A stretch of 64,000 bases of DNA from an uncultured Gammaproteobacteria bacterium (GTDB lineage Bacteria; Patescibacteriota; Microgenomatia; UBA10105; UBA927): contig CAZUOM010000003.1 in the NCBI GenBank assembly GCA_964621305.1, positions 14,589-78,588 of the forward strand, written 5' to 3'. Numbering within the stretch: position 1 is the stretch's first letter; every line of letters starts with the position of its first letter. The position numbers were made by a program, and so were the translations under genes. Positions 29,522-47,577 of this stretch are shown one piece after another. A model generated the notes under the pieces. The model did not search any database. It was not told the origin of the DNA and saw nothing but the letters and a program-made list of their open reading frames with translations.

Positions 29522-29560
29522 GTTAGAGCCTCAAGTTGTAAACCTCTCATTTAGTGAGCA

Positions 29561-29577
29561 TAGCGTCGCTAATTTTC
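29561..29577 (+). terminator. Weak candidate intrinsic terminator in a convergent gap
   Basis: Short hairpin tagc-gtc-gcta followed by a T-run (aatttt) between the convergent gene ends at 29521 and 29600. The stem is only 4 bp. Confidence 0.2.
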
Positions 29578-29599
29578 TGACAGTGTAATTTCCGGGTGG

Positions 29600-29929
29600 C
29601 TAAAATTTGACTTTAACATTAATTATAAAAATCGCCCACATGAGTAAATATAACAGAGTGCCAAGATTTTCGGCTATATCGTGTCTGGAAAAAAGAACGG
29701 CAAGGATTGAGAGGAAGAGAAAAAAAATGGCAATAACCAAATAAGCCCTGGTTCTAAATTTGAGGATAATGGTTGCAAGAATTATCATGATAAAAATCTT
29801 ATTCCTAGTCGTAAAGACAAGGCTTGAGTAGGGAAGAATAGACAAAAGGTCCACAACGAAATAGCTCAAGGTAAAAGCAAGTAATTTCCCGCTGTTTTGA
29901 CTGATAAACTCTTTAATCTTCTGCCACAT
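29600..29929 (-). CDS. Small membrane protein (GtrA-like?)
   Basis: 109 aa, 3-4 hydrophobic segments. Start overlaps the stop of the upstream large membrane protein. Family uncertain. Confidence 0.3.
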   Translation of the reverse strand: MWQKIKEFISQNSGKLLAFTLSYFVVDLLSILPYSSLVFTTRNKIFIMIILATIILKFRTRAYLVIAIFFLFLSILAVLFSRHDIAENLGTLLYLLMWAIFIINVKVKF

Positions 29930-32900
29930 ATTTTCTTTTTCTCAGAAAAACTAGTAACAGGACGAATGTTGGCAGGGTCACAGACGTAATCAGAAGACCT
30001 ATATAGAAAAAGCTCTGTGGAGCATAGACAATCCTCATTTCAAAATCTCCTGTATTTTGGACTAGCCAGGCATTCGAGTAACCGTCAAGACTAAAATGGA
30101 CAGATGGGTCAACTTGACTGAAAAATTTTCCCGGTAAGATTTTGGCCAAAAAGGTCGATTTAACATCTTCCTCCACGAAGTAAGCTTTCCAACCGTTATT
30201 GAAAGACTGCAAGAAGTTAAGAATAAAACCGGAGTCTGCCCCGCTGACCTTTAGTTTGTATTCGGTAGGCGAGACCATTTCACTGGTAATTTGTGGGGTG
30301 GACAATTTTTCCCCCGCGAGTTCCTTGGTAAAAAAAACTTTGGGACTATAAGTTCTATAGATCCTGGGGCTACTGACCTCAAAATACTTTTCATCTATAA
30401 AGCTGTTAAAACCTTGATATTCAAACCCTAGATAACCTTCCCTCGCCAAAAAATTAGGGTCAATGGTAAAGCTAAAGGTTCTCGGAACCCTGGAAGTTTT
30501 TAAGTCTTTTTTAACTCTGTCTGCTTTTCCTAAAATATTCGGTCTATCATTGTCCTGAAAGATAATTAAGCGGGGGTTGGTATTTTTGCTAGCCCGATAT
30601 TCGAAAGAAACTGCGTACGAATCCGAATATGAGTAATCATTAATTTTTAGCCTGCTGCTCTCGTTTTTCGAAATATCAATAAGCTCCCCAGGAGGTGGTT
30701 CTAATAGATTCACGGGCTCGGGATATATAAGCTCAACTCGATGTGTACCTTCTGCTAATGATATCTGGCGCCTGTTACTAACTTTTTGTCCATTAAGATA
30801 TAGAGAAACTGGTTCTGTAACTTGTTCTACAATTTCCAGCCGGTAAATTCCCGGCTCGCTTATGACGACCAAATACCTTTTTTTCGTTTCTTCCTGTGTT
30901 ACCCAGACTTGTTTCTCAAGAACTGAAACCCCGTCGTTTATAAACCCAAAAAGCTGGTTAAAAGCATCGGGGGCTAAGTTGTATTGGTTCTCTACTGCCG
31001 AAAGAGACCTCTTGTGCATCGTCAGATAGCCCAAAATTTTTAGCCCATAGGCATTCTTGTCTGATAAATTAAGATTCGAAAACTGGGACATGGCGTCTTC
31101 CAGATTCTTTTGATAGCGAGAAAGACTATCCTCTATTAACCCGGCTGTGAGCTCTCTCTCTTTTGGATTTTGGCTTCCGGCTCTTTCTGTTAGAAGCGCC
31201 GCTTCCCCCAATCTTTTGCTGGCAATACCAAGGTTGGCGTCGATTCTCCGGGCCGGGAGATCTTCAACTTCCTTAAGAACACCAGCCTCTCTCTTGTCAA
31301 TAAAGCTGTAGAGAAGAGAACCGGGCAAAAAGTTAATATAGGGAAGAGATAACTCTTCAACGAATTGCATATATTCTCCTTGTTTGCAATATACACAAGT
31401 TGCCTCAATTCCCAAGGCGTCGGAATAAATAAGAATTTTTCCTACGTCTTTTCCTTCTGTGTCCAAGGAGCTGACAAGGTGCTTACCAGACCCGCTGATT
31501 GCCTTAAACGTCTCCTCTGTAGGCTGCTTATCAGATTGAATGTAGGAAAAAGTCCTTACCGTACCAACTTGGGCCAGATCATAGATGGCTTTGTCTAGGC
31601 CATATAGTCTCCAAGCGCCCTCTTCCCTTTCCAAGAATACTCCCCTAAAGCTTTTTAAGTTCTCCTCCCAAAACAAGGCGTCTTGGCTTTTATTTATTTT
31701 ATTGTTGTACAAGATATCGTCTCTCCAGAGAACCTTCTTTACCCCCGACAGTTTTACGAAATATATAAAATCGTTTTCGTCCCCCCTCTCAATTGCTTTG
31801 TACAGAGCGTCGACTAATTTCTCCCTTTTGGTGTCGTTGGCCAAAAACGATTTGGTGGTGGAAATCCTGGGAAGAAGATCTAAACTCCAATAACCCCATT
31901 CGTAGCTGTCGGAGTTGAACTGGGAATCCATGGGTGGGATCATAAGTATTCTTGCTTCCTTGTCTTTAAGGTTATCGATGTAGTTTGACATATCCCTGAC
32001 ATAGGAGGGAACTGTTACTTTTGTGCTAAATGGCGGATTCCAGTCAAAAAATCTGTTGGAAAAATACGGGTAGTGATATGAAAGAATAAAAACTATCGAT
32101 AAGACTCCAGCAACAATTTTTTTCTTACCGGAAGCAATGAATCTCTGAATCAAAAAATTCAAGAAAAATCCTGTCAGGAGAACTGCTGGAAACCAGGCGG
32201 CGGGAGCAAACTTGTAAAAAGCGGTCCTGAATATGGCAAATCCAGGAAGATACTTAATAAGAAAAACATAGATAAAACCGAACGGAGGATGTGAACCTGC
32301 CGTAAAGACCAATCCGACCAGGAAAAGAAGCAGAAGAAAGAAAACGACCTCCCTCTTTTGGTTTTCTTTACTTGCGAAATAAGACCACATTCCGACCAAA
32401 ACGAGGAGAGTGGGAATAAAGCTGGCCATAATAAGGATGGGGTTTCCCATAAAGGGCTGTGAGTAAGGATGGTGGCCGCTATACCAATCAGGAATTCCTT
32501 GCAGCCTGAAAAGGTTTATAAGACTTGAATACTGACTAACATTCTCTTCCCACCGAAGCGCCCCCAATATTCCTCCCATGGACGAGAGCTCCGATTTATA
32601 AGTGTTGAAAAATAAGTAAGATTGGGGAAAAACCCAATAGGCATTAGTGACCAAAAAGGTAAATACAAAAGTTAAGCCAGTTACGGCCGGCCGTAAAATA
32701 CCTTTTAAGCCATATTTGTATATAGCGGTAAACGCCAAGTATGCAAAAGCCACAAGAACAGCCAAAAGGACCGAGCCATAGAGGGGGGCGGAACCTCCGC
32801 CATTTAAAAAGAAAAAAAGAAAAGAAAAAAAGATTGCTCCCTTCAAAATAGAATAGTCCGTCTTAAGAGTTTTATATGTAATTAAAATTGCAAGAGGAAG

Positions 32901-33368
32901 GGCTGCATAAAGGGAAAATTTTGCCCTCTCGCCTATAAACCAGCCCTGCAAGATAAAAAAGTTGTAAACATAGAAGGTGCTAGAAAATATTCTCAATATC
33001 CAATATTTTTTTTCTGGAAAGAAGTTGCGAACAAAAATATACATGGATATCACCATAACGAAAAACCAGAGAACAAAGGAAAATCTTTGGGCGATAGAAA
33101 GGGAACCTGTCAGATAGTTGCCCAGAACTTCGGGTAGTTGGTTGACGAGGAAACCTTTATTGATAGCCCAATCGACACCAAAACCAATAGTTGGATTCCA
33201 AGAATAAAAAAGACTTTTAAGGTGGGACATCGAAAGCAATCTAAATCCAGAGTCGTGCCCCAAAACAACTTCTCCTCCTTTAAACCAGAGAAGTGGTGTA
33301 AGAGACAACAAGAAAATAAATAAAATTTCGAGTGTTTTTGTATTTAAAAAATTTATCCTAAATTTCAT
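29913..33368 (-). CDS. Large polytopic membrane protein (1151 aa) with extracytoplasmic C-terminal domain; putative GT-C glycosyltransferase
   Basis: About 500-aa N-terminal multi-TM region homologous to 43634..45232 (for example IKYLPGFAIFRTAFYKF versus EHFPGFVMFRDPTKFYV). Long C-terminal soluble domain. AT-rich codon usage. Confidence 0.7.
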   Translation of the reverse strand: MKFRINFLNTKTLEILFIFLLSLTPLLWFKGGEVVLGHDSGFRLLSMSHLKSLFYSWNPTIGFGVDWAINKGFLVNQLPEVLGNYLTGSLSIAQRFSFVLWFFVMVISMYIFVRNFFPEKKYWILRIFSSTFYVYNFFILQGWFIGERAKFSLYAALPLAILITYKTLKTDYSILKGAIFFSFLFFFLNGGGSAPLYGSVLLAVLVAFAYLAFTAIYKYGLKGILRPAVTGLTFVFTFLVTNAYWVFPQSYLFFNTYKSELSSMGGILGALRWEENVSQYSSLINLFRLQGIPDWYSGHHPYSQPFMGNPILIMASFIPTLLVLVGMWSYFASKENQKREVVFFLLLLFLVGLVFTAGSHPPFGFIYVFLIKYLPGFAIFRTAFYKFAPAAWFPAVLLTGFFLNFLIQRFIASGKKKIVAGVLSIVFILSYHYPYFSNRFFDWNPPFSTKVTVPSYVRDMSNYIDNLKDKEARILMIPPMDSQFNSDSYEWGYWSLDLLPRISTTKSFLANDTKREKLVDALYKAIERGDENDFIYFVKLSGVKKVLWRDDILYNNKINKSQDALFWEENLKSFRGVFLEREEGAWRLYGLDKAIYDLAQVGTVRTFSYIQSDKQPTEETFKAISGSGKHLVSSLDTEGKDVGKILIYSDALGIEATCVYCKQGEYMQFVEELSLPYINFLPGSLLYSFIDKREAGVLKEVEDLPARRIDANLGIASKRLGEAALLTERAGSQNPKERELTAGLIEDSLSRYQKNLEDAMSQFSNLNLSDKNAYGLKILGYLTMHKRSLSAVENQYNLAPDAFNQLFGFINDGVSVLEKQVWVTQEETKKRYLVVISEPGIYRLEIVEQVTEPVSLYLNGQKVSNRRQISLAEGTHRVELIYPEPVNLLEPPPGELIDISKNESSRLKINDYSYSDSYAVSFEYRASKNTNPRLIIFQDNDRPNILGKADRVKKDLKTSRVPRTFSFTIDPNFLAREGYLGFEYQGFNSFIDEKYFEVSSPRIYRTYSPKVFFTKELAGEKLSTPQITSEMVSPTEYKLKVSGADSGFILNFLQSFNNGWKAYFVEEDVKSTFLAKILPGKFFSQVDPSVHFSLDGYSNAWLVQNTGDFEMRIVYAPQSFFYIGLLITSVTLPTFVLLLVFLRKRKYVAED

Positions 33369-33408
33369 AATTACTTCTTAACGAATAATTAACCCCTACA
33401 ATAATTTT

Positions 33409-35064
33409 TTATTGTTTTCTCCATGTCCCCACTTTCCCTAACCTTACTCTTGTCTCGGAGGTAATATCTTCTAATGTTTTCGTTTGGCCATCGTAGAAAA
33501 AGGCATAAACATTCTCCGGTTCAAGAATATTTTCTTTTACTGTCTCCCTCATTTCCTCAAAATCCCAAAAATAACCAAAGCCAGCCTCACCTACCTCTCT
33601 ATATCCTTGCTCTGTCATTCCCCACAAAAAATTATCTACCAAAAGTTCTTTAGGAATAATCCCAGTATCGTTGTACCAAACCATTAGTGTATATCCTGGT
33701 CCTTGTTGTAGGGGAAGAGGAAGATTTTCTATATAGAAGCTCTTATTTCCTGTAATATAAAAAATATTTTTGCTACCAAGTGTAGGATAGTTCTTCTTTA
33801 TTTGGGATAAAATCGCTTTTCTGTCGCCTGCTAAAATTACTTGTCTTGCAATCTCTGCCCTAATAATACTAGCGTGGTGAAATAAAAAAATTAGAAATAC
33901 AAATAACCCCATTATTTTTAATAATCCCGCTTTTTGAGAAATCCATCTAATAACCGAGGCCAGGATAATACCGGCACCTGCCGAGGCAATATAATAGTAA
34001 CGGGATTCAAGATAGGTAAAAGTGCGATCTAAAACTATGTAAGGAAGAAAACTTAGAAAAACTAAAGCAACGGCAAGCAAAACAATTTTAGCATCTTCAC
34101 TTTTTCTATAAAGGAAGAGAAGAGTCAAGAGTAAAGAAGCTGAAATGAAAATCGAAAGAAGGTCAGCTGTTATTGTCTGTGATACTAATCCAATAATGGG
34201 ATTGCCTTCAAGGAACGGGTACTGGATTTTAGTTATTTCGCTAGCCCAAGAAGAAAGAGTTAAGGGGGGAATAAAAACTTGAGAAAAACTCGTAGTTGGA
34301 TAAAGGATCAGACGAACAGTAATGGTTTTTAAAAAATTATCACCACCGGCTACAAAAACTCCCACCTGCTCCTTTTGAGAAAAAAGTTCAAAAAGTCGGA
34401 AGAGAATAAGTCCCAAACCATAGACAAGCAGTGATAGATGTATCTTAACAGCTCGAAGAACGTTTGCTTTTTTAAAGATGATGTACATGAGGGGTAGAAA
34501 TAGAAAAAGAAAAAGGCCTATCTCTTTAAACCAGAAAGAAATGATAGTAAACAAAAATGAAAAATACAAAAACCTCTTTTTATCATTTTTACAATAGATA
34601 AAATAAGAAATAATAGCCAAAAGAATAAATGTTGTGGCTGGAAGCGTTCCGGTTGAAGTACCAAACCATGTAACAGGTTGGTGTGAAACACTATTTAGAG
34701 AAAAAAATAAGGCAGGGATCAATGCAATCAGACGATTTGTAAATATTTTTTTGGCTAGAGTAAATACTAAAATCGCATTTAAAAAATGGATCATAATTGA
34801 AAAGATTACCAGTGGAACGATATTAAATCTTGATATTTTAAAAAGAGGAAGGCTAATAAACCGTGTTAAAATCCGTCCCTCGCCAAAAAAAATCTGTAAA
34901 GGTGTAAAACCACCAGTAATGTGCTGCTCTATCCCCTCAACCATCATGTGGCCTAAACCTTGCCATTCATCTTGTTGATAAAAGGTTCTTGGAAGATCCT
35001 GGAAGGTTCCAATTATGGCAAAAAAAATTATTAGGGTGGGTAGAATTAGAAAAAACCGCTTCAT
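33409..35064 (-). CDS. Polytopic membrane protein, putative GT-C glycosyltransferase
   Basis: 551-aa ORF with about 12 hydrophobic segments and ATGA overlap with the downstream gene. No specific family recognised. Confidence 0.55.
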   Translation of the reverse strand: MKRFFLILPTLIIFFAIIGTFQDLPRTFYQQDEWQGLGHMMVEGIEQHITGGFTPLQIFFGEGRILTRFISLPLFKISRFNIVPLVIFSIMIHFLNAILVFTLAKKIFTNRLIALIPALFFSLNSVSHQPVTWFGTSTGTLPATTFILLAIISYFIYCKNDKKRFLYFSFLFTIISFWFKEIGLFLFLFLPLMYIIFKKANVLRAVKIHLSLLVYGLGLILFRLFELFSQKEQVGVFVAGGDNFLKTITVRLILYPTTSFSQVFIPPLTLSSWASEITKIQYPFLEGNPIIGLVSQTITADLLSIFISASLLLTLLFLYRKSEDAKIVLLAVALVFLSFLPYIVLDRTFTYLESRYYYIASAGAGIILASVIRWISQKAGLLKIMGLFVFLIFLFHHASIIRAEIARQVILAGDRKAILSQIKKNYPTLGSKNIFYITGNKSFYIENLPLPLQQGPGYTLMVWYNDTGIIPKELLVDNFLWGMTEQGYREVGEAGFGYFWDFEEMRETVKENILEPENVYAFFYDGQTKTLEDITSETRVRLGKVGTWRKQ

Positions 35065-36317
35065 TTTACTGTCATCTTACAAAATTTTTTGATTATTTTT
35101 GCCTCATCTTGGGCGATTTTCCTCCAAGCAAACCTTCTGGCATACTTTCTTGCCTCAGAAGAAATACGTTTTACTTCTTCCGGCCGAAGAAAAAGAAACG
35201 CCAATACTTTCTTTGTTGCTTTTCTAATGTTTTTATTTTCTACTAGATAAAAAGATGGATGATTATAAAGTTCTGGATAATCTTTCAAAGCTGCTACGTT
35301 GTAGTGTACGACTGGAAGACCGCAAGATAAGGCTTCAAGAATAGTAATAACAGGAACCAGAGGTTCAAAATGAGCTAAATGGATAAAAACTCTCGATTCT
35401 CTCAATCTTTGAAATTTTTCCTCTTCAGATAAAACTCCAAGAATAAAGATATTCTTTTTTAATTTCTTTTTCTCAATTTCTCCCTCTAGTTTCAACTTTG
35501 TTTCTCTGTCGCAAGGGCCAATCATGATGAGCTTTGCACCCTTTTTTATTTTTGTCACATTTTCCCAAACTTTTACCAAATCAAAGATCCCTTTTTCCGA
35601 AGTATGACGGCCAACAAAAACCCCATCATATTTTGGTAAAATCTTCTTATAGCTAACACTGTTTATGGTTCCTATTGAAACGCCTGAAGGAGTTACACTT
35701 ATTTTTGATGAATGGTAGTAAGGTGCTAATTTTCTTTTAACGTGAGGGCTAACAGTAACAACATAGTTAACATTTCGTATTAATCTTTTCATCAGAAGCA
35801 AACTAATTACAATACCAAGGGGCGAAACAAATGAACGAGATCTTCCAATCTTGTTACTTCTTAGCGATTTATAATATTGCCAAAACCCTCCCTCTGGAAT
35901 TTCAAAGTTAAGAACGTCAATAATTACTGAGACAGAAGGAAAAAGTTTTTTTAAGATAACAGCGGGTAGAAAAATGTGTAAAGCTTCCCCTATCGGTGCA
36001 TAAATTACTTTATATCTTTTTGTCTTTAATTCTTGCCAACCCTTAATTGTTAGGATGACCGCAATCAAACTCCATTCTAGTATTCTTCCCCAAAGGAAGC
36101 TCCAGTTATAAATTCTGTCAACGATACTAGGTAGTTTATATTCAACAACCCTTCCGTTGAATTTTAAATCGGCAAGAATCGTTGGGTACTTGTCTAGAAC
36201 AGTTACGTGAAAATCTTGCGGAAAAAATCTCAAAAATTCTTTGGTTCGGACTAAACCACCAGAAGTAGGAACGGGCTGATCTGGGTGCCATAAGAGAAGT
36301 AAAATACCCTGATTCAT
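35061..36317 (-). CDS. GT4 (group 1) glycosyltransferase
   Basis: C-terminal domain with HTSEKGIFDLVKVW and FEPLVPVITILEALSCGLPVV (E-x7-E-like), GT-B architecture. Confidence 0.7.
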   Translation of the reverse strand: MNQGILLLLWHPDQPVPTSGGLVRTKEFLRFFPQDFHVTVLDKYPTILADLKFNGRVVEYKLPSIVDRIYNWSFLWGRILEWSLIAVILTIKGWQELKTKRYKVIYAPIGEALHIFLPAVILKKLFPSVSVIIDVLNFEIPEGGFWQYYKSLRSNKIGRSRSFVSPLGIVISLLLMKRLIRNVNYVVTVSPHVKRKLAPYYHSSKISVTPSGVSIGTINSVSYKKILPKYDGVFVGRHTSEKGIFDLVKVWENVTKIKKGAKLIMIGPCDRETKLKLEGEIEKKKLKKNIFILGVLSEEEKFQRLRESRVFIHLAHFEPLVPVITILEALSCGLPVVHYNVAALKDYPELYNHPSFYLVENKNIRKATKKVLAFLFLRPEEVKRISSEARKYARRFAWRKIAQDEAKIIKKFCKMTVK

Positions 36318-36336
36318 AAAATAACTGCCTCAAATA

Positions 36337-37359
36337 TTAATCTTTATAGTTTTCTAACTCTGTAAACAAATAATAGTAATACAACAGCCGAACCTTTTTC
36401 TTTACCCGTTTCATAAGTTTTTTGTCGCTGATCTTTCGTAACTTCTCCTGGACTTTTTTTCTGTTGTTCAAGGTTTTCCCCAGATGAGTCAGATTCCAAA
36501 AGACAGCCTGTTGGATTGAGATTGCAACTCCAACTCTACCTCGTAAGAGAAAGGAAAACACTACGGCCTGGGTTAAGAGTAGATGGATGGGAAGCGTCTT
36601 AATAAGCTCCCATAGCCCGAGGTTTTTGATAATTGCGCTGATCCTATTCTTAAAGGAATGAAAATTAATGAAAGCGGTGGGAAGCTTTCTAGTGGTACTG
36701 CCTCCTTTGTGGAATATCGATGTGGTCGGCACGTACTTAATAATGTAGCCAGCCAACCAAACTCTCCAGCAAAAATCTGTCTCCTCAAAATATAAAAAGA
36801 ACTCATCGTCAAAAAGTCCAACTTTGTCTATAACCTCGCGCTTAATAAGCATGCAGGAGCCATTTGCAGAAAAAATTTCAGAGGATTCATTGTATTTTTT
36901 AAGTTTTGGGTTTTTATCATAACCGAAGTGGTATAAAAACCCCGAACTAGTCAAGAATGCCCCTGCGCTTTGGAGCTTCCTAGAGTCTACAAAAATTATT
37001 TTTGGCTGAACCACGCCAAGAATTTTTTCTTTTTCTAGTGCAGCCACCAGTTCAGTGAGAAGATTGGGCTGGACGACAGTGTCGTCGTTTAGCAACAAAA
37101 CATATTCTCCCTTTGTTTCCTTTACCCCCAAATTATTGCCTTTTGCAAAACCCAGGTTCTTTTTTTTCTCTAGAAGTTTTACCCGGGGATAATGTCTTTT
37201 AATGTATTCAATGGAGCCGTCGGTAGAGCCGTGGTCAACAATAATCATCTCAACGTTTTTATATTTAAGTTTCAAAAGAGACGGGAGAAGATCTCTCAAG
37301 TTTTCTAAACCATTTAAGTTAATGGTGACTATTGAAACCAAGCCTTTTTGGGAAGCCAT
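36337..37359 (-). CDS. GT2 family glycosyltransferase
   Basis: VSIVTINLNGLENLRDLLPSL...IIVDHGSTDGS...NLGFAKGNNLG...LLNDDT, a GT-A fold family 2. Confidence 0.75.
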   Translation of the reverse strand: MASQKGLVSIVTINLNGLENLRDLLPSLLKLKYKNVEMIIVDHGSTDGSIEYIKRHYPRVKLLEKKKNLGFAKGNNLGVKETKGEYVLLLNDDTVVQPNLLTELVAALEKEKILGVVQPKIIFVDSRKLQSAGAFLTSSGFLYHFGYDKNPKLKKYNESSEIFSANGSCMLIKREVIDKVGLFDDEFFLYFEETDFCWRVWLAGYIIKYVPTTSIFHKGGSTTRKLPTAFINFHSFKNRISAIIKNLGLWELIKTLPIHLLLTQAVVFSFLLRGRVGVAISIQQAVFWNLTHLGKTLNNRKKVQEKLRKISDKKLMKRVKKKVRLLYYYYLFTELENYKD

Positions 37360-37428
37360 AACTTTCTAGTATTGTATACCGATAAGATGAAGCATTAAAG
37401 CTTTCTAGACATAAAGTTTTTCGTCATT

Positions 37429-38112
37429 TCAAAAATAAAGCTCTTTTATCAGGGAGAACAGAAATTTTATCCCCTCGGTCGTCTTAAGCTTTGACTCACC
37501 CCAGGCTCTTGCTTTCTCCCGACTGGGAATCTCTAATACTTTAAGACCATACCTCAAAGCCTTAACAACCATTTCCTGTTCAGACCTAAAATCATTGAAT
37601 TTTAATCCTAGCTTAAGCGCTTCTGATTTTTTTATGGCCCGGAAGCTATAAAGTATGTCTGTCAGATTTGTACCATATCGCCTGTTAACTAAGGCGACCA
37701 AAAGATCGCTGCCCGCAGAACGAACTATCCCGCCTAAGTTAATATCCATATCATAACTTCCTCCAGTTCTTCTCGAGGCCGTAACCAAATCGGCTCTTCC
37801 TTGTTTAATCGGGTTTACAAATTTTGGGATGTCTTTCTCGTCGTGTGAGCCGTCCGCATCAAAAAATACAACAATGTCCCCTTTGGCTTTTTTGATACCT
37901 ATCCTTAAAGCCGCTCCTCTGCCTTTTTTATTATCCAAAAAAAATCTGGCGCCTAGTTTTTCAGAAATTTCTTTTGTCCCGTCGTTAGAATGTCCATCGA
38001 TAACCACTATCTCATCACCATATCTTTTTATTGACTTTAAAATCTTTTCAATTCCCTGCCCTTCGCCTTTAGTCAAAACTACAAGACTTACTTTTTGTTC
38101 TACTTTTTTCAT
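37429..38112 (-). CDS. GT2 glycosyltransferase, Dpm1/GtrB-like polyprenyl-phosphate sugar synthase
   Basis: VSLVVLTKGEGQGIEKIL...IVVIDGHSNDGT...KKGRGAALRIG...VFFDADGSHD. Confidence 0.75.
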   Translation of the reverse strand: MKKVEQKVSLVVLTKGEGQGIEKILKSIKRYGDEIVVIDGHSNDGTKEISEKLGARFFLDNKKGRGAALRIGIKKAKGDIVVFFDADGSHDEKDIPKFVNPIKQGRADLVTASRRTGGSYDMDINLGGIVRSAGSDLLVALVNRRYGTNLTDILYSFRAIKKSEALKLGLKFNDFRSEQEMVVKALRYGLKVLEIPSREKARAWGESKLKTTEGIKFLFSLIKELYF

Positions 38113-38777
38113 TTCTTACCCTTCACCGCACGAACAACGCAATATAAAGACAAATCGACCGGAAGTAAATAAGGAAACCAAATGGTCTTGTCAATAACGA
38201 CATTCTTTTTAATCGCACCGATAATTTGCCTATGGCTTGAAGGATGTATCTCGTCTGGAGTAAAGCCCAATACGTTTTTAATAATAAAATCGGTAAGTAG
38301 ATTTTTTGCGGGAAAACCCATTATTAAATAACCGTCGGGTTTCAAAATACGATACATTTCGCCAATAGCAACGCTCAACTCTTTCTTGGTGAAATGTTCA
38401 AGAACGCTCATGCAAACAATAGTATCAAAATAATTTTTCCGGTAAGGAGTTCTAAAAATCGACCCTGTAACTAACTTGGCTTTTATATTTTGTTTTTTAA
38501 GTATCTCTTCCACAGTTCTTGGATTGGGCAGGGTATCAATACCATGGATTTGAATGCCAAGCTTTACAAGTGTTGGTATAAAAGTTCCTCCTCCGTAACC
38601 CACATCAAGAATCTTCTCCACCTTGCGGCGCTTCATCAAAGAAATGGCCATCTCCAGACGTTTTCTCATAAAGTAGCCTTGTATAGGTCGATAGTACTGA
38701 TCAATAGTACTATCGATATAATCATAGTTGAGGTTCTTCAAATTCTCCTTTGGGGGTATAACCAATTTGACTTTCAT
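38109..38777 (-). CDS. Class I SAM-dependent methyltransferase
   Basis: Motif I KILDVGYGGGTF and post-I LVKLGIQIHGID; downstream VLEHF. Typical methyltransferase type 11/12. Confidence 0.7.
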   Translation of the reverse strand: MKVKLVIPPKENLKNLNYDYIDSTIDQYYRPIQGYFMRKRLEMAISLMKRRKVEKILDVGYGGGTFIPTLVKLGIQIHGIDTLPNPRTVEEILKKQNIKAKLVTGSIFRTPYRKNYFDTIVCMSVLEHFTKKELSVAIGEMYRILKPDGYLIMGFPAKNLLTDFIIKNVLGFTPDEIHPSSHRQIIGAIKKNVVIDKTIWFPYLLPVDLSLYCVVRAVKGKK

Positions 38778-41317
38778 AGAGACAATTGCGGCACTAGTTT
38801 AATCAGAAAGACATCAATATTCAGCGGTAATTCTCCAAATTCTAGAGAAATTTCGGTCAGATACTTATCAAACATCTGCCCTGAGGCTGCGAATATTTCT
38901 CCTTCGGGAATCTTTACTCTCACCTCTTGTGGTTGCAATTGTACCTTAAACCGAAAGTACAGCTCCTGCGAGTTTTGTTTCGGGCTATCTTTGTTCGTGT
39001 TCCAGCGAAGTTTTGCCCAAAAAGTATCCAGACCAGCCTTTTTTGCATAAGCAAAATCATCATAAGAAGCCATAAAAGAGAATGTGTCTAAGAAATCTTT
39101 TAAAAGCTGGTCGCGGCTGATGTACAAATTTAATACCGCCCTGGCTCCATCAGTAATAACCTCAAACTCATCGAGGAGGGCGAAGTTTCCGGTCTGGGTT
39201 GTATGGAGATCCATTTTTATATATCGAGCCCTGATTGGCCCATCTAGTATATCAAGCCTGCTATCTTTTTTATTATTTGAAATCTCCAAAACCTTTTCCC
39301 AATTAATTCCATCCAAAGAGGCCGAGTAGGTATAGGTTGAAGGAGTTCTGCCCACACCCGGTTGCGAACCCCAGGCCAATGCTGCCACATTTAGCTCTCT
39401 ACCTAAGTCGACCTTTATCCAAGCGGGTACTGCGTCAACAATCCAAGAGGATCTTTCGCCAACGTTCCCATCTATTAAGTTTTCCGGTAAAACATGTAAA
39501 AAGGGTTCTCCCGGTCTTTGAGACAAAGTATTTGCTGTGTTCACTTTCGCGGTTTTCAAATACCTGGCGCGGTCAATTGAATAATCCACTAAAGCCCTAA
39601 ACTTTTTACTGTCCGGTCGAGATCCCTGCTTAAAAATGCCAAAACTGGAACTCATATTTATTTCTGCTAAGTAGGGAGTTTCGACAAATGGGACACCATC
39701 AGTTTTCGCAATATAGGTACTCCTGTCGCTTTCGGCCGGCTCGAGGAAATATGTCCCCTGCTTAGCCAGTACGGTTCTTGCTTCTTTTGTCCTGTTAATA
39801 ATGCCCTCGTTGCTGTTATAATCTAGAAAGATAACGCTAGACAAATCGAGCTTGCCTTCTTTTACCTTCTTTAAGACTGCTGCGATTTGAGATTCAATTC
39901 GATAAGGCTCATCTGCCAGGTTTGGGTATTGTTTGTCTTTCACAAAGGACCACTCATATAAGAAATCATTTAAACCTGAAGCGTGAGGGTAGATGTAAAA
40001 AACTACACCATCCGGCAGTGACGGAAACTCCTTTGAAAATTGAGAATTAAATCTCTTTGGCTCCGAATACGTTGACAGGTAAGCTTCGGATTGAATTTTA
40101 TGAAGATGATAAAGTTGCACTCCCAAATAAAAAGTGACTGCTGTGGCGAGTATTTTATGGGTTCCAATTTTTGCCGCTTTCTTTTGAAGTTTTTTAGACA
40201 AAAAGATCAGAAAGTATGCCAAAAGGACAGAGGTGCCTGCAAACGCAAAGTAGCCATAGCGCATCGTGATGAATTTATAATCTCGTGACAGAAATTCTTC
40301 CGTGTAAGGTATTGCCATCGCCACAAATGTAATAAAGCAAGCAACCCAACCGGTAAACAATAGGGGAAGACAAATATCTTTCTTCTTTTTACGCAGTAAA
40401 TAAAGAGCGTAGCTTAATAAAGAAATTGTCACCCACCCTATAAATGGAAAGAAGTACTTGTTAAGAAAGTTTGCATTCACAAATGTTTTTAAACTCTCTC
40501 TAACATCATTGAGAATTGGATAGGGAACTGCTTGTGGTGATATGAGCTTCCCAATCGTTAACAAAATAGACTTGAAATACACAAAGTACAATCCGTCTGC
40601 GATGAGCTTTACGCGCATTTTAACGTTGCTGTCAGCAAAGTCTCCGGGTATGCCTCCGTACCAGGATCGAATCATAAGAAACGCAAAGACAGAAAGATAG
40701 AAGGGAAACTGTCTTATGACAATTTTGTAAAGTACTTTCTTAGAAAAAGCGTCTTTGGTATTAATAAAGTCATAAAGAGTGATAATTGCTACAATTACTA
40801 AACCCGTTTCCCTGGTGAAAAAGGCCAAGAAAGAAAAAAACATAGACAACAATAGGTTCCACGAGCTTCCATTCTTTCTGTAATCTATAAATTTAATTAG
40901 TGCCAAGGACATAAAAATCAAAAGGAGCGGGTAATAGGAATTAAAACTACCCCAGGTAAGAACGTCGTTGTAGGCAGTGTTTGCAACGAAAATAAGACTT
41001 GAAATAAAAGATAGTTGTCTATTTTTTGTTAGGATTTCCACGAGCCTAAAGAGAGTCAAGGCTGCGACAATGTGTAGGACTAAGCTAGTCAGGTACCAGC
41101 CGCTGGGATTCCAGCCGAAAATTTTCCAATCCAAATAATATAAAAAACTGTGGCTCTTAATGAGATTTACAAGAGTATGCGGAGTTGACCCCATCAGCCA
41201 AGATGTTTCAAAACCTTTAAGAAACCAAAAATCCAGAGTCCGATGCCAAGCAATCAAACCGGTAAGTATAATGGCTATCGGGTATATAAATGGAGAGTTA
41301 AAAATTCTTTTTAACAT
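38774..41317 (-). CDS. Polytopic membrane protein (putative GT-C glycosyltransferase) with C-terminal F5/8 type C (discoidin) carbohydrate-binding domain
   Basis: 847 aa. N-terminal about 400 aa is multi-TM. Residues 612-720 read LIDGNVGERSSWIVDAVPAWIKVDLGRELNVAALAWGSQPGVGRTPSTYTYSASLDGINWEKVL...YIKMDL, matching the discoidin DGN..T.W....QWI.VDLG....I..V.L.W pattern. Confidence 0.7.
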   Translation of the reverse strand: MLKRIFNSPFIYPIAIILTGLIAWHRTLDFWFLKGFETSWLMGSTPHTLVNLIKSHSFLYYLDWKIFGWNPSGWYLTSLVLHIVAALTLFRLVEILTKNRQLSFISSLIFVANTAYNDVLTWGSFNSYYPLLLIFMSLALIKFIDYRKNGSSWNLLLSMFFSFLAFFTRETGLVIVAIITLYDFINTKDAFSKKVLYKIVIRQFPFYLSVFAFLMIRSWYGGIPGDFADSNVKMRVKLIADGLYFVYFKSILLTIGKLISPQAVPYPILNDVRESLKTFVNANFLNKYFFPFIGWVTISLLSYALYLLRKKKKDICLPLLFTGWVACFITFVAMAIPYTEEFLSRDYKFITMRYGYFAFAGTSVLLAYFLIFLSKKLQKKAAKIGTHKILATAVTFYLGVQLYHLHKIQSEAYLSTYSEPKRFNSQFSKEFPSLPDGVVFYIYPHASGLNDFLYEWSFVKDKQYPNLADEPYRIESQIAAVLKKVKEGKLDLSSVIFLDYNSNEGIINRTKEARTVLAKQGTYFLEPAESDRSTYIAKTDGVPFVETPYLAEINMSSSFGIFKQGSRPDSKKFRALVDYSIDRARYLKTAKVNTANTLSQRPGEPFLHVLPENLIDGNVGERSSWIVDAVPAWIKVDLGRELNVAALAWGSQPGVGRTPSTYTYSASLDGINWEKVLEISNNKKDSRLDILDGPIRARYIKMDLHTTQTGNFALLDEFEVITDGARAVLNLYISRDQLLKDFLDTFSFMASYDDFAYAKKAGLDTFWAKLRWNTNKDSPKQNSQELYFRFKVQLQPQEVRVKIPEGEIFAASGQMFDKYLTEISLEFGELPLNIDVFLIKLVPQLSL

Positions 41318-41430
41318 AATAGATCGATAAAAACATCGATGATTTTTTGGATTTCCCTGCCGGTCAATTCCGGATTATTTCCAATATACAACCCCTGTCC
41401 GCGAACAAGTCTTGCATCGGGAACCTTGTC

Positions 41431-42216
41431 TTAAACTTTTTGCATCACGACGTGGTAGGCGGAAGCAAATCTTTCGTCTTGATCCAAACGGTCTAATAAA
41501 AACCCCATACAATTCATCAAGAAAAATATTAAAGGGGACACTAAAAGCAAAACAATTTTTGTCATGGCCCTTCCTTCGAGTATTTTTCTTACTATATATT
41601 GATTTACAAGTATAGCCAGCGTTGTCCCAAAAAATGAATAAGTGTAAATTCTTTTCACTTTTAATCCGGATTTTCTTGCCAACTGCCGGTAGCCGCCCCT
41701 GGTTATTCTTTGGAAATCGCTGTCGATACCGCCATGCTCCCGATAAATAAACGGAGAAACGGTTAAACACCTTCCGCCTTTTTTAAGAACTCTGGCAGCC
41801 TCGCGGAAAAATTTTTGAATATCAGAGATATGTTCCGCCACTTCAAAGCTTGCGTAAGTATCAAAGGTTTTATCTTTAAAGGGCAGCGTGAGGGCATCAC
41901 AAACTAGGTCTATTTTTTGAGGGTCCTTAGTTCTCCCGTATAGTATCTCGGTGATGACTCCAAATTTATGCGCCTCCTCCTTTTGTGTCTTAAATTGCTT
42001 ATCCCACGAAGATGAGTCTGTTGCTATATATTCTCTAACCCGCTTGTTCCTAGCTAATATTCTTTCTTTTTTCTCACAATTTCCAGCCCCCGTTTCCAAA
42101 ACTTTTCCCTTAAAATATTTAATCAGTTCATTATTTCCCTTCTCCTTGTTCCTAAAATCAAGCCAGTGAGGATAAAAAGGGGTCGCGACAAAAGTGGTAA
42201 GTAGCGCTCTTATCAT
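41431..42216 (-). CDS. Class I SAM-dependent methyltransferase
   Basis: GKVLETGAGNCE (motif I), acidic motif II, GGRCLTV. 261 aa. Confidence 0.6.
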   Translation of the reverse strand: MIRALLTTFVATPFYPHWLDFRNKEKGNNELIKYFKGKVLETGAGNCEKKERILARNKRVREYIATDSSSWDKQFKTQKEEAHKFGVITEILYGRTKDPQKIDLVCDALTLPFKDKTFDTYASFEVAEHISDIQKFFREAARVLKKGGRCLTVSPFIYREHGGIDSDFQRITRGGYRQLARKSGLKVKRIYTYSFFGTTLAILVNQYIVRKILEGRAMTKIVLLLVSPLIFFLMNCMGFLLDRLDQDERFASAYHVVMQKV

Positions 42217-42218
42217 TG

Positions 42219-43391
42219 TTATACACCTAGCGTTTTTCCCAGTGCCTCTGCAAAAATTTTATTCCAATCGAAGTTGACAGCGTATTGTACTGCGTTGGCC
42301 GAATAGCTGTCTAATTTAGACCTGTTTCCTAATAACTCTTCTATTTTCCGGGCTACTGAATCTACGTTGTATCTGGCTATTAATCCGCACCTCTTCTTGG
42401 CTAATTGTTTAGCTATTGGCGGTACGTCTGTCAAAATTACAGGGAGGCCTGCGGCAAGATAGCTTTTTATTTTTCCGGGGTCTGTAAAATAGGTAAAACT
42501 GTCTGGCGCGGGTTCATAAGTAGCTACCGAAAGAGTACTTTTTGCCAACTCCTCCTCAATTTTTTTATGGTTTTTGATAAAACCAAGAAAGGAAACCTGA
42601 TTTTGTAAATTGTTTTTTTTAACTCTTCTCCTGAGATCTTGTTCATAAGGACCGGTGCCGATAGCATAAAGGTGTACTCCCGGAAATTTTTTAGAAACCT
42701 TAGTAATTGCATCGATAACGACTTGAAGCCCTTGTTTTTTTATGAGGTGGCCCAAAAAGACAATTCGATCTTTTTCTTTTTGGACTTTCCGATGCCTTTG
42801 GGTTCTCTTAAGCCAGATACCAACCGGCACTACTATGTTAGTTGCGAGTCTATCTCTTTTCAGTTCGTGTTTTATTCTTGCTTCTACGATTTTTTCCGAA
42901 AGATTCCACACCATATCAGCCTTCTTTGCACATTGCGAATCAAAAAAATGATAAAGTTTGTTCAAAAAGCTATTGGTAAACCTTTTAGGGACGTAATCGA
43001 TGGTGTAGAAAACTACTTTTTTAGCTCTTCCCAGTCGTTTCAGAAATAGGCCAAGGTATGCAAGAAGGCCATCTGAACCAATATATAAGTCAACTTTATC
43101 TGTTTTTCCCAATACCCACAGCACGGTAGAGACGGCCTCTTTTAAGTATGTAAATACCCCAGGGAGTTTCAGATTAAGCCCATGGTGCTCTCTAAGTAAT
43201 TTTCCCTGCTTATAGGTTCGATAAAAAGATGGCTTCCCTTCCATGATGGAAAACGGGTGGCCAATAAAAAGAAGGCTGCCTGTTTTGTTTTTTAAATACT
43301 CCTCTAGATCAAGAGCCGGACCACTTGCAGAGACGTGAGAAGAGATTACTACGTCAAGACCCTTTAGGGTTCTTTTTAAATCTTCATTCAT
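42219..43391 (-). CDS. GT4 (group 1) glycosyltransferase
   Basis: 390 aa, GT-B-like. C-terminal domain RIVFLGHLIKKQGLQVVIDA...GTGPYEQDL...FIKNH. First gene of the minus-strand AT-rich operon. Confidence 0.7.
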   Translation of the reverse strand: MNEDLKRTLKGLDVVISSHVSASGPALDLEEYLKNKTGSLLFIGHPFSIMEGKPSFYRTYKQGKLLREHHGLNLKLPGVFTYLKEAVSTVLWVLGKTDKVDLYIGSDGLLAYLGLFLKRLGRAKKVVFYTIDYVPKRFTNSFLNKLYHFFDSQCAKKADMVWNLSEKIVEARIKHELKRDRLATNIVVPVGIWLKRTQRHRKVQKEKDRIVFLGHLIKKQGLQVVIDAITKVSKKFPGVHLYAIGTGPYEQDLRRRVKKNNLQNQVSFLGFIKNHKKIEEELAKSTLSVATYEPAPDSFTYFTDPGKIKSYLAAGLPVILTDVPPIAKQLAKKRCGLIARYNVDSVARKIEELLGNRSKLDSYSANAVQYAVNFDWNKIFAEALGKTLGV

Positions 43392-43633
43392 ACCAATCTA
43401 TTCTTTCTTGACAGATAACCACATCCGCACCCCTCGTAACTTTTAAATTATATCACAGCTTCCTGTATGTCACCCTGTTAGAAGTTCTGGCAAGGTATTC
43501 CTGATTTTGAAATGAGTTCCAGGAAAAGAGGGCTTCCCCCAGTTGTGGTTAAAATGCTAGGATATACTTTGGGTAAGATATTAGTTTTAAAACTGGCTCA
43601 TGGAATGTTTGTTTTGCAACGCCAATTACACGC
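43392..43633. promoter_or_regulatory. Divergent intergenic region (242 bp) likely holding promoters for the minus-strand island operon and the plus-strand downstream genes
   Basis: Largest non-coding gap in the window and the only divergent gene pair junction here. Contains a TTGACA hexamer at 43411; no confident -10 assigned. Confidence 0.3.
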
Positions 43634-45232: not shown

Positions 45233-45365
45233 CTGTATGGGCGCTTTGGGGCACTAAATGTTCTAAGCCAGGAAGAAGACATCGAAATGTTTCCTCGGTG
45301 GCTTACCACGGATTGTTCCTACCTCCTCGTTTTGGAAAAGCCATAGTTGGGTATACAATACCTCT

Positions 45366-46307: not shown

Positions 46308-46525
46308 AGTCGCAGGACATCCTATTTCTGATAGTGTTTGTTGCTCTTCTGTTTTTACGTAAGCCGCGATTTCTTGTCTGGGCGGGTTTAGTAAACCTCG
46401 CCCTTGCAATACCGCTATTTGCCACCTGGACATTTTTTACCGCAGAGCGACTGACGTGGTATGCGGCAGCTTTTTTTCTTGTTTTTATCCTCATTTTTCT
46501 CCTCAAACCACATAAGGTACAATAG
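46304..46525 (+). CDS. Small two-TM membrane protein (hypothetical)
   Basis: 73-aa ORF with ATGA overlap to UXS and two hydrophobic helices. No family. Confidence 0.3.
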   Translation: MKSQDILFLIVFVALLFLRKPRFLVWAGLVNLALAIPLFATWTFFTAERLTWYAAAFFLVFILIFLLKPHKVQ

Positions 46526-46530
46526 GATAT

Positions 46531-46584: not shown

Positions 46585-46589
46585 GCCTT

Positions 46590-47567: not shown

Positions 47568-47577
47568 AATTGAAAAT
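47553..47577 (+). repeat. Heptanucleotide repeat (aaattta/aaattga) about x3.5 spanning the galE stop and the next gene start
   Basis: aaattta aaattta aaattga aaatg, covering the KNKFKI* C-terminus and the TTG/ATG start of 47570. Confidence 0.65.

Follow-up and report, generated by a model that had tools for sequence, protein, structure and literature searches.

The block of ten minus-strand ORFs at 29600-43391 is probably a mosaic replacement cassette for extracytoplasmic glycosylation and methylation, exchanged by recombination within its clade and lying inverted. The window, which here means the whole 64,000-nucleotide stretch of DNA that was analyzed, belongs to a Microgenomates-type Patescibacteria (CPR) bacterium, uncultured and ultra-small, and contains a surface-glycan biosynthesis supercluster that spans at least 57 kb and encodes no fewer than 15 GT-C-like membrane glycosyltransferases. 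The block, approximately 14 kb of sugar-transferase and methylase genes, is the variable segment of this much larger locus, with further glycan genes on both sides. The conserved left arm (19467..29521, plus strand), which would be the left recombination flank of the cassette, encodes by Pfam a GT4, GT2s, polytopic proteins, two NDP-sugar epimerases/dehydratases, and a DegT aminotransferase. The conserved right arm (43634..53819, plus strand) encodes by Pfam a GT-C-like 532-aa protein, epimerases, a split GT4, an acetyltransferase, a GT2, and a 1057-aa polytopic protein. At the far right of the window are cohesin genes of 50% GC, which lie outside glycan synthesis.

The ten co-oriented genes exist exactly as an earlier, sequence-only reading had listed them, and public assemblies of the same sequence carry identical gene calls. 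That reading had labeled them a glycosylation/methylation module, a functional label that is correct, and Pfam confirmed the gene families: two GT4-type and two GT2 glycosyltransferases, two methyltransferases, and an F5/8 type C (discoidin) domain. Genes are named below by their first coordinate, and all those of the block are on the minus strand. The GT4-type glycosyltransferase 42219 (42219..43391, 390 aa; Glycos_transf_1, E 3e-21) shows 64% identity to its counterpart in the related locus L092, and the SAM methyltransferase 41431 (41431..42216, 261 aa; Methyltransf_11, E 1e-13), with a single C-terminal hydrophobic segment at residues 221-239, shows 72% identity in the same locus. The class I SAM methyltransferase 38109 (38109..38777, 222 aa; Methyltransf_11, E 1.7e-18) is 71-74% identical in L092 and L093 and overlaps its neighbor by 4 nt on each side; operon-like overlaps of this length are found at 35061/35064, 38109/38112, and 38774/38777. 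The GT2 37429 (37429..38112, 227 aa) is of the polyprenyl-phosphate sugar synthase type (DPMS/AglJ/ArnC-like), has no membrane domain, and presumably makes a lipid-linked donor. It matched Pyrococcus dolichol-P-mannose synthase (5mlz, E 2e-14) and ArnC in the PDB and AglJ (TIGR04182, E 3e-32, below the equivalog cut-off) in NCBIfam, and is 79% identical to a gene of L093. The second GT2, 36337 (36337..37359, 340 aa; Glycos_transf_2, E 4.4e-28), is cytoplasmic with a GT-A fold and shows 69-70% identity to genes of L010 and L093. The GT4-type (GT-B fold) 35061 (35061..36317, 418 aa; Glycos_transf_1, E 1.4e-20) has a GC content of 35%, overlaps 33409 by 4 nt, and is 34% identical to its best relative among the fetched loci.

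The GT-C-like membrane proteins proposed earlier were supported by fold matches for 29913 and 38774, and 33409 gave a weak PMT_2 signal (E 0.004, below the cut-off). The 847-aa product of 38774 (38774..41317) is a GT-C and CBM32 fusion, with a GT-C membrane domain at approximately residues 1-430 and an extracytoplasmic part including a CBM32 / F5/8 type C lectin domain at residues 610-718 (Pfam F5_F8_type_C, E 2.6e-14). In its AF2 model (pLDDT 86), Foldseek matched the membrane part to the oligosaccharyltransferases Stt3 (8AGE) and PglB (6GXC, 5OGL), and CBM32 (4A44, TMt 0.79) was also matched. PMT_2 was present in approximately 10 of 61 homologs; the source-named matches were all Patescibacteria, most matches carrying no name. 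The polytopic PMT_2-type protein 33409 (33409..35064, 551 aa) has approximately 11 hydrophobic segments, a GC content of 35%, and a GC3 of 0.29. Among 1.8e9 representatives, the best one outside its own cluster is 43-44% identical, and 33409 and 35061 form the lowest-GC, most divergent stretch of the block. The 1151-aa product of 29913 (29913..33368) is an AftD-like GT-C glycosyltransferase with an N-terminal polytopic domain, extracytoplasmic β-sandwich (CBM-like) domains, and a membrane helix at the C terminus. For its AF2 model (pLDDT 82, pTM 0.73), the top Foldseek match in the PDB was mycobacterial AftD (6W98, E 1.4e-14, TMq 0.47); STT3, AftA, and EmbC ranked next. PF11847 (GT-C_AftD) was matched by 7 of 20 homologs, G37-H38-D39 in the first loop is invariant, and the nearest relative (65% identity) is in L009 (GC 38%). 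The last gene, 29600 (29600..29929), shares 17 nt with the AftD-like gene upstream of it and encodes a 109-aa protein with approximately four membrane helices predicted by hydropathy and no match in Pfam or NCBIfam. Its homolog of 116-119 aa always trails the AftD-like gene in relatives (66% identity in L009). The small protein may act as a partner or flippase for the AftD-like enzyme.

The GC content of the block is 38.65%, compared with 47.4% in the left flank (1-29599) and 44.0% in the right flank (43392-64000). The previously claimed drop is therefore real, but its size was overstated, the flanks being at 44-50% GC and not 50-55%. Against a background of only 50 kb of flanks, themselves glycan genes, the departure was significant: mean per-gene GC was 0.381 in the block and 0.461 in the flanks (Mann-Whitney p=5.5e-6), and mean GC3 was 0.380 and 0.481, respectively (p=8.6e-5). 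Beyond GC3, GC1, GC2, and amino-acid usage were also shifted (Lys 1.55x, Ala 0.68x), and the GC-normalized dinucleotide signature gave a Delta* of 123e-3 for the block versus 12-23e-3 for equal-sized flank chunks. FYMINK in the block GT-C was above that of all ten GT-C paralogs in the flanks, and these paralogs, of the same protein class, stay at 45-49% GC. Unsupervised maximum-likelihood/BIC segmentation over the whole window at 100-bp resolution placed one change point at 29.4 kb and another at 43.6 kb, corresponding to the two intergenic gaps of the block. The block itself is not uniform (sub-segments of 41.4%, 34.7%, and 39.5% GC), and another low-GC patch lies at 57.1-61.7 kb; overall, the window comprises five compositional segments, with approximately 45 of 64 kb at 44-50% GC.

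Both compositional borders are also synteny breaks. The left junction is a convergent 78-bp gap (29522..29599) after the conserved epimerase gene; no terminator-like hairpin was found there, the fold being no better than that of shuffled sequences (z=+1.4), so the terminator proposed for this gap was not borne out. Nor was the promoter region proposed for the right junction, a divergent 242-bp gap (43392..43633), where no promoter match rose above chance (32 promoter-like sites in the region versus 31 expected).

In approximately 40 related loci, the left-arm genes are collinear up to the epimerase at 28541-29521. The first gene past this epimerase in relatives is a codirectional 42219 homolog; of 48 related loci, at least 27 have such a 42219-like GT4 on the strand of the epimerase and within 2.6 kb of it, with variable genes coming after. 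The order is 28541, 42219, 38774, 38109, and 37429 in L025. In L010, it is 27330, another gene, 28541, 42219, 36337, further genes, 33409, further genes, 29913, the small gene, and a 43634-like gene; in L093, 38774, 38109, and 37429 are followed, past further genes, by 36337 and, past others, by a 33409-like gene. Inverting the block restores the gene orders of all three loci. The block is thus inverted relative to its relatives, and inversion of an ancestrally codirectional segment is the best explanation for its opposite orientation. In many related Patescibacteria genomes, the block families adjoin these flank genes too, largely in the same order; such synteny across the clade, which the earlier reading had itself named as grounds for refutation, partly contradicts the claim of an island.

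The closest relatives of the arms differ in the slot, as judged from gene-identity comparisons that could mix paralogs, since orthology among the many glycosyltransferase paralogs is uncertain. Between epimerase 28541 and the GT-C-like gene 43634, the closest relatives of either flank appear to carry non-orthologous glycan genes. In L011, the closest left-flank relative, five of seven matched left-arm genes are 68-85% identical (24353, 40%; partial 22324, 50%); collinearity stops right after the epimerase, the slot genes differ, and the GT4 is just 36% identical. In Candidatus Gottesmanbacteria L094 (GCA_016194575.1), the right arm is collinear at 59-82% identity starting at the 43634 gene, and the genes upstream of the 43634-like gene are unrelated. 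Conversely, island genes are matched at 62-79% identity in L092 and L093, whereas the arm-type genes of L092 are only 38-49% identical. Best-match loci have a GC content of 33-41% for the island genes and 42-47% for the arm genes (≥59% identity; range 59-85%), with one arm relative, L096, at 55%; the relatives closest to the island genes (62-79% identity) are at 36-41% GC. The nearest relatives of block and flanks therefore differ, those of the island coming from lower-GC lineages of the same clade.

Import is likely, because the block differs from both flanks in GC, dinucleotides, and amino-acid usage and its nearest relatives are lower in GC. The cassette would have arrived whole or piecemeal through recombination inside the conserved arms, replacing its predecessor rather than entering by integrase-mediated insertion, and the donor may have been a lower-GC relative of the same clade. 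No donor could be identified, since nucleotide identity reached approximately 70% at best in any relative. Island genes (62-79% protein and approximately 66-70% DNA identity to their best relatives) are no closer to their relatives than the flanks are to theirs, so any transfer was old or came from unsampled lineages; an old import should, however, have partly ameliorated. Of the horizontally acquired island originally proposed, the separate history is thus supported, by composition, amino-acid usage, and incongruent relatives, but the word island misleads for part of a larger glycan cluster with syntenic families in relatives, no mobility hallmark, and no donor.

Vertical inheritance is an unlikely alternative: the cassette would always have been in the lineage with an intrinsically low GC, fast-evolving, weakly expressed surface-glycan genes drifting AT-ward through AT-biased mutation or relaxed selection, and a local inversion would be the sole event. 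The shared families and order and the lack of any donor closer than approximately 70% nucleotide identity speak for it, as does a GC drop downstream of the epimerase in the higher-GC relatives L011 (-3.6 points) and L013 (-5.7 points), which fits recurrent import and an intrinsically low-GC slot equally. It is opposed by the non-orthologous slot genes of L011 and L094, the distant arms of the closest island-gene relatives, the shift of GC1, GC2, and amino acids along with GC3, the unaffected arm GT-C paralogs, and sharp change points that coincide with synteny breaks. We consider a reversed polarity, in which the block would be native to a host genome of approximately 38-40% GC and the arms, higher in GC, would be imported or atypical, still less probable. 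Most sampled clade members are at 29-40% GC, the background consists of flanks only, and the five segments indicate that heterogeneity is general; however, the greater part of the window, including the non-glycan cohesin genes, is at 44-50% GC, and the GC contents of the arm relatives show that a higher-GC host lineage exists. An assembly or binning chimera of two Patescibacteria populations of unlike GC is very improbable: every public short-read assembly of this population is interrupted within the block (at 35.0, 35.9, 37.1-37.4, and 41.4 kb), but independent contigs cross the junctions at 100% identity (the left in an NCBI assembly contig, 18541-37422; both in Logan assemblies of SRR6261452 and SRR6943130), and contigs L001 and L004 share a 331-bp overlap within the block. 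The reading as a classical mobile genomic island or the remnant of a prophage, delivered from a distant donor through site-specific recombination, has the sharp GC drop and uniform opposite orientation as its sole attractions and is effectively refuted by the absence of tRNAs from the whole window, of direct repeats from the block borders, and of integrase, transposase, or phage genes from the ten products, and by named homologs that are all Patescibacteria in the same kind of locus.

As for function, the gene families and folds suggest that the block provides for the lipid-linked, extracytoplasmic glycosylation of a surface glycan and for its methylation. The enzymes 42219, 36337, and 35061 would extend a lipid-linked or membrane-associated glycan in the cytoplasm, the small soluble GT2 37429 would load a sugar onto polyprenyl phosphate, and 38109 and 41431 would methylate sugars. 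After the donor had been flipped across the membrane, the GT-Cs 38774 (with its lectin domain), 33409, and 29913 may add sugars to a surface glycan or glycoprotein outside the membrane; the substrates and glycan target are proposed from these families. Among the block genes, neither a flippase nor an initiating phosphoglycosyltransferase was identified.

We compared the block with known systems. Like AftD (6W98), 29913 combines an N-terminal GT-C membrane domain with large extracytoplasmic carbohydrate-binding β-sandwich domains. By contrast, sequence identity to AftD is just 9-10%, 29913 itself falls below PF11847, and the block lacks the decaprenyl-phosphoarabinose pathway genes (UbiA-type PRTase, DprE1/E2) of the AftD/Emb/AftA systems. 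In archaeal Agl N-glycosylation (AglJ/AglD Dol-P-hexose synthases with AglS/AglB GT-Cs), the likeness lies in AglJ being the best family for 37429 and in the resemblance of the 38774 membrane domain to Stt3 and PglB, but all block scores are far below equivalog cut-offs. The three-component systems GtrA/GtrB/Gtr*, CsbB/GtcA/YfhO, ArnC/ArnEF/ArnT, and pentofuranose (PMC11127046, PMC8035078) resemble the block in the tight linkage of a GtrB/DPMS-like synthase (37429) to GT-Cs, which here too would take a lipid-linked donor outside the membrane. The block differs in having no recognizable GtrA, SMR, MATE, or Wzx-type flippase, a synthase without membrane helices that would serve three GT-Cs, a methyltransferase translationally coupled between the synthase and GT-C genes, and a CBM32 lectin domain on a GT-C.

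Cassette swapping is an ordinary bacterial route to surface variation. The block resembles the replacement flexible genomic islands of aquatic prokaryotes ("glycotype" or O-chain/S-layer cassettes; Lopez-Perez et al. 2014, PMC4033161), of which the Pelagibacterales O-chain cluster is a further example (PMC11898729), in occupying a slot between conserved neighbors, in its surface-glycan role, in the different genes held by relatives, in its atypical composition, and in lacking mobile-element genes. Those islands are defined among strains of one species, with near-identical cassettes across clonal frames and SNP peaks marking the borders; the nearest comparators of the block have only 60-85% protein identity, so that recent replacement cannot be shown. 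The exchange of flexible islands has been ascribed to homologous recombination in the genes that border them, and we propose the same for this cassette, which differs from them in its CPR host, its inversion, and its internal mosaicism.

The low-GC block at 29600-43391 appears to be an exchangeable cassette that lies inverted in a fixed slot. Its ten minus-strand genes, named here by their start coordinates, sit between the epimerase gene 28541, the last of the plus-strand left arm (19467-29521), and the GT-C-like gene 43634, the first of the plus-strand right arm (43634-53819). For comparison, 80 metagenome loci were fetched at homologues of the flanking epimerase (63-85% identity), together with loci at homologues of the island proteins (both given L numbers). 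About 40 loci were of sufficient length for this comparison, and in them the left arm is collinear, in the order 19467-21636-22324-23486-24353-25422-26422-27330-28541. In at least 27 of 48 loci, the first 2.6 kb beyond the epimerase hold a 42219-like GT4 gene in the same orientation. Several relatives run on into island-type genes, all codirectional with the arm. The gene orders are 28541, 42219, 38774, 38109, 37429 in L025; 42219, 36337, 38774, 28541, 38109, 37429 in L007 and L037; 27330, x, 28541, 42219, 36337, .., 33409-like, .., MT, 29913, small, 43634-like in L010; and 38774, 38109, 37429, MT, .., 36337, .., 33409-like in L093. Read backwards, the block of the window runs 42219, 41431, 38774, 38109, 37429, 36337, 35061, 33409, 29913, 29600 and then 43634. 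Because the reversed block matches the orders in relatives, it is the usual variable segment of the clade, inverted as a unit. The sequence-only reading, which proposed a horizontally acquired glycosylation/methylation island, had named synteny across the clade as evidence against itself; such synteny is found in part, as island-type gene orders next to the arm in relatives. In L025, a homologue of the 41431 methyltransferase (7112-7891, 57% identity) lies within the left arm, between 25422-like and 26422-like genes, which indicates that single genes also move between arm and cassette.

Most homologues of island and flank proteins carry no source label; the named sources are Patescibacteria, Levybacteria, Gottesmanbacteria, Microgenomates, and Berkelbacteria. 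Two metagenome-assembled genomes titled "uncultured Gammaproteobacteria" (CAYQEJ010000001.1, L006; CAZBFH010000001.1, L008) have a Patescibacteria-type glycan locus of 30-31% GC, collinear with the Candidatus Levybacteria contig L007, and their label is probably wrong.

The compositional shift coincides with the block. In a 1-kb profile, GC is 35-43% across 30-43 kb, 45-52% to its left, and 44-49% to its right. The exact values are 38.65% for 29600-43391, 47.4% for 1-29599, and 44.0% for 43392-64000; the drop reported from the sequence is thus real, but the 50-55% given for the flanks was too high. Mean gene GC is 0.381 in the block versus 0.461 in the rest of the window (Mann-Whitney p=5.5e-6), mean GC3 is 0.380 versus 0.481 (p=8.6e-5), and GC1 and GC2 are likewise reduced. 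Unsupervised multi-change-point segmentation of the whole window gave a BIC optimum of five segments (47.5, 38.7, 44.7, 39.2, and 50.0% GC from left to right) with cuts at 29.4, 43.6, 57.1, and 61.7 kb, and the first two cuts place the block limits at the two intergenic gaps. Synteny breaks and GC change points fall together at both block ends. The GC-normalized dinucleotide distance delta* is 123e-3 for the block versus 12-23e-3 for flank chunks of equal size. Amino acid usage is also shifted relative to the flanks (Lys 1.55x, Ala 0.68x; FYMINK 0.339 versus 0.284), and the 551-residue GT-C candidate 33409 is more AT-adapted than all ten flank GT-C paralogues. The block itself is a mosaic of three sub-segments, with 41.4% GC at 29.4-32.8 kb, 34.7% at 32.8-36.4 kb, and 39.5% at 36.4-43.6 kb. 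The GT-C/GT4 pair at 33409-36317 has the lowest GC (35%, GC3 0.28-0.29) and no close relative: its own cluster aside, 33409 has a best match of 43-44% identity among 1.8 billion representatives (clustered at 50% identity), and 35061 reaches 34% at most among the fetched loci.

Block and arms also differ in their nearest relatives. The closest left-arm relative, L011 on contig ORMF010731707.1, matches 23486, 25422, 26422, 27330, and 28541 (five of seven matched genes) at 68-85% identity, 24353 at only 40%, and a partial 22324 at 50%; its collinearity stops at the epimerase, after which come other GT4 genes and epimerases, with a best match to 42219 of 36%. The closest right-arm relative, a Candidatus Gottesmanbacteria contig (JACQBI010000016.1 of GCA_016194575.1, L094), matches 43634-50646 at 59-82% identity, and upstream of its 43634 homologue lie DegT, a 780-residue protein, a methyltransferase, and a 1242-residue protein with merely trace similarity to the block. 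The island genes have their closest relatives in other loci, namely L092 (42219 64%, 41431 72%, 38774 62%, 38109 71%), L093 (38774 65%, 38109 74%, 37429 79%, 36337 70%), and L009 (29913 65%, 29600 66%). Orthology among the many glycosyltransferase paralogues is uncertain. The arm-type genes 24353, 25422, and 26422 of L092 reach only 38-49% identity. The best-match loci have 33-41% GC for island genes and 42-47% for arm genes (at least 59% identity). Together, the incongruent relatives and the compositional and amino acid shifts favor slot content imported from lower-GC members of the clade. The polarity, with imported block content rather than atypical arms, rests on the 45 kb of the arms and the GC of their nearest relatives. 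Base composition across the clade ranges over at least 29-56%, since a Logan contig from SRR27730037 (L096; 43634 homologue 59% identical, epimerases 64-71%) has 55.5% GC. Higher-GC relatives too lose 3.6-5.7 GC points downstream of the epimerase, and this loss fits both recurrent import into the slot and an intrinsic low-GC tendency of the slot.

Apart from contigs of the population itself, which are 100% identical, every other contig reaches a nucleotide identity of about 75% at most, and no second genome of the species was found. Recent transfer from a sampled donor is ruled out because no nucleotide match exceeds about 70-75%. With no donor closer than about 70%, any import from lower-GC clade members was not recent, or its source lineage is unsampled. 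A classical mobile genomic island would carry an integrase together with a tRNA gene or att-type direct repeats at its borders. Additive islands, unlike replacement ones, have integrase, transposase, or phage genes. Pfam and NCBIfam scans found no integrase, transposase, or phage gene among the ten products, a tRNA scan of the window found none, and a search of the block borders found neither direct nor inverted repeats; the block thus lacks the marks of such an island, and recombination in the conserved arms becomes the likely route. The claim of horizontal acquisition accordingly keeps its support from the separate history of the block, in composition and relatives, and is weakened by the lack of mobility features and by a slot shared across the clade. 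The junction signals proposed from the sequence did not hold up. In the 78-bp gap at 29522-29599, described as a convergent terminator, there is no terminator-like site and the fold is no better than that of shuffled sequence (z=+1.4), and the 242-bp gap at 43392-43633, described as a divergent promoter region, has no promoter match above chance, promoter-like sites in the region numbering 32 versus 31 expected. A lagging-strand or inversion effect as the source of the low GC is ruled out because inversion alters strand skew and leaves GC and amino acid composition as they were. An assembly chimera is ruled out by independent contigs, in NCBI assembly GCA_005239695.1 and two Logan run assemblies (SRR6261452 and SRR6943130), that span both junctions with 100% identity. 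Public short-read assemblies of the population (contigs L001-L005) all break within the block, at 35023, 35882, 37092-37422, and 41409, yet extend across its borders; strain-level variation in the cassette, or low coverage there, may be the cause.

The ten co-oriented open reading frames are called identically in public annotations of the identical contigs. Overlapping start and stop codons of 4 nt at 35061/35064, 38109/38112, and 38774/38777 point to an operon, and 29600 and 29913 overlap by 17 nt (29913-29929). Pfam backs the gene list proposed from the sequence, with two GT4-type (35061 and 42219) and two GT2 (36337 and 37429) glycosyltransferases, two SAM methyltransferases of the Methyltransf_11 family (38109 and 41431), and one F5/8 type C domain (PF00754; 53.9 bits, cut-off 28.2) in the 847-residue product of 38774; 33409 has a weak PMT_2 match. 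The 227-residue product of 37429 (37429-38112), which has no membrane helices, matches Pyrococcus DPMS (PDB 5mlz, E 2e-14), ArnC, and NCBIfam AglJ (TIGR04182, E 3e-32), with all scores under the equivalog cut-offs, and by homology is predicted to be a polyprenyl-phosphate sugar synthase of the GtrB/DPMS-like GT2 type. In the AlphaFold model of 38774 (pLDDT 86), the GT-C membrane domain resembles Stt3 and PglB in Foldseek, which also backs the CBM32 fold of the F5/8 type C domain (4A44, TMt 0.79, and 4A42; range 0.77-0.80). Every source-named homologue of this GT-C::CBM32 protein is from Patescibacteria, with most homologues unlabelled by source.

The 1151-residue product of 29913 matched no Pfam or NCBIfam family, and sequence and profile searches of PDB sequences returned nothing significant. 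An AlphaFold model built on 20 homologues (pLDDT 82, pTM 0.73) matched mycobacterial AftD best in Foldseek (6W98, E 1.4e-14; 6WBY; 6WBX), followed by STT3, AftA, and EmbC. Across the three AftD structures, E ranges from 1e-14 to 4e-13 and TM from 0.41 to 0.47. PF11847 (GT-C_AftD) is matched by seven of the 20 aligned homologues (best E 2e-8) and not by the window protein itself. The predicted structure has the AftD-type architecture of a GT-C membrane domain with extracytoplasmic carbohydrate-binding modules. The 109-residue product of 29600 (29600-29929) has about four hydrophobic helices, and neither it nor its homologues matched any family at E up to 5. In relatives, its homologue always comes after the AftD-like gene. 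None of the ten block products matched GtrA, SMR, MATE, or a Wzx-type flippase in Pfam or NCBIfam, and 29600 is, by size and linkage alone, a candidate flippase.

The block is not set in unrelated DNA, as nearly all proteins encoded at 0.6-57.2 kb are for glycan biosynthesis. Beyond the block, the same locus has at least a dozen GT-C-like polytopic proteins (PMT_2, YfhO, GT87, PTPS_related, and unassigned), GT2 and GT4 enzymes, four NDP-sugar epimerases/dehydratases, a DegT aminotransferase, and a hexapeptide acyltransferase. In total, at least 15 GT-C-like polytopic glycosyltransferase candidates lie within 57 kb (570-57232). Tandem PMT_2 paralogues at 7462-12347 are 30-35% identical, and the product of 50646-53819 has 1057 residues and about 22 hydrophobic segments. 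At 47570-49245, a lone GT4 N-terminal-domain reading frame (184 residues) immediately precedes a complete GT4 (374 residues); the pair is kept in Candidatus Gottesmanbacteria L094 at 70% and 71% identity, which excludes a recent pseudogene split. Farther right, the second low-GC segment (57100-61700, 39.2% between BIC change points) has an AbiEii-type toxin gene at 59585-60424 (Pfam E 5e-17), overlapped by 4 nt by an upstream 218-residue reading frame. Both sit between dockerin-domain paralogues (57663-58865 and 60470-61636) that are 81% identical across their C-terminal 53 residues, and the segment looks like a toxin-antitoxin insertion. Cohesin- and dockerin-domain proteins cluster at the far right of the window (57663-63827, about 50% GC), which suggests a cellulosome-like or surface-scaffold system adjoining the glycan locus. 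Bacteria of the CPR (Patescibacteria) have very small genomes and an attached life on other cells. At least 57 kb and at least 15 GT-C enzymes in so small a genome make the surface glycan a major investment, and the apparent cassette exchange in a fixed slot suggests selection by phage or host recognition. A low-GC variable region in a polysaccharide locus is, taken alone, ordinary; what stands out more is how large the whole locus is and how dense in GT-C enzymes, together with the triad of GT-C::CBM32 protein, methyltransferase, and synthase (38774-38109-37429). The GT-C::CBM32 fusion family and the AftD-like enzyme with its conserved small partner are offered as candidate enzymes.

In the proposed mechanism, cytoplasmic GT4 and GT2 enzymes would lengthen a lipid-linked glycan, and 37429 would produce a polyprenyl-phosphate sugar. 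The methyltransferases would act on sugars; one of them, 38109, lies between 37429 and the GT-C gene 38774 and is translationally coupled to both. Once flipping has taken place, all three GT-C enzymes would transfer sugars on the outer side of the membrane, onto an acceptor presumably bound by the CBM32 module in 38774 and by the β-sandwich domains in 29913. A bolder and rather unlikely reading is that the triad, coupled and conserved in the clade, represents a Patescibacteria-specific type of extracytoplasmic glycosylation, built from a GT-C::CBM32 lectin fusion, a SAM methyltransferase, and a polyprenyl-phosphate sugar synthase free of membrane helices. The lipid-linked donor sugar would then be methylated prior to transfer, the acceptor glycan would be chosen by the lectin domain, and flipping would proceed outside the GtrA, SMR, MATE, and Wzx families, possibly through small proteins like 29600. 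If so, cassette exchange would be how minimal-genome episymbionts vary their surface glycan for host attachment or phage evasion.

Taken together, the observation holds in part, and the sequence-only interpretation has partial support. As a Gtr-type system, the block has a polyprenyl-phosphate glycosyltransferase (37429, by homology with scores below equivalog cut-offs) and GT-C fold enzymes (29913 and 38774, from predicted structures, and 33409, a weak PMT_2 match), and its membership is incomplete because no flippase was recognized. The proposed mechanism would work like the three-component Gtr/Arn/YfhO systems (PMC11127046, PMC8035078) and can also be likened to mycobacterial AftD. As a replacement island, the block occupies the same slot between conserved neighbors (on the left in about 40 loci, on the right in Gottesmanbacteria L094), the slot of relatives holds non-orthologous genes of similar function (L011 and L094), and integrase, transposase, and phage genes are absent. 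It is best grouped with the replacement surface-glycan cassettes, a known class, as a CPR member that is inverted and mosaic. In replacement flexible genomic islands, exchange has been proposed to occur via recombination in the conserved bordering regions (PMC4033161), and the picture of replacement glycotype islands drawn from free-living aquatic bacteria is here extended to CPR.
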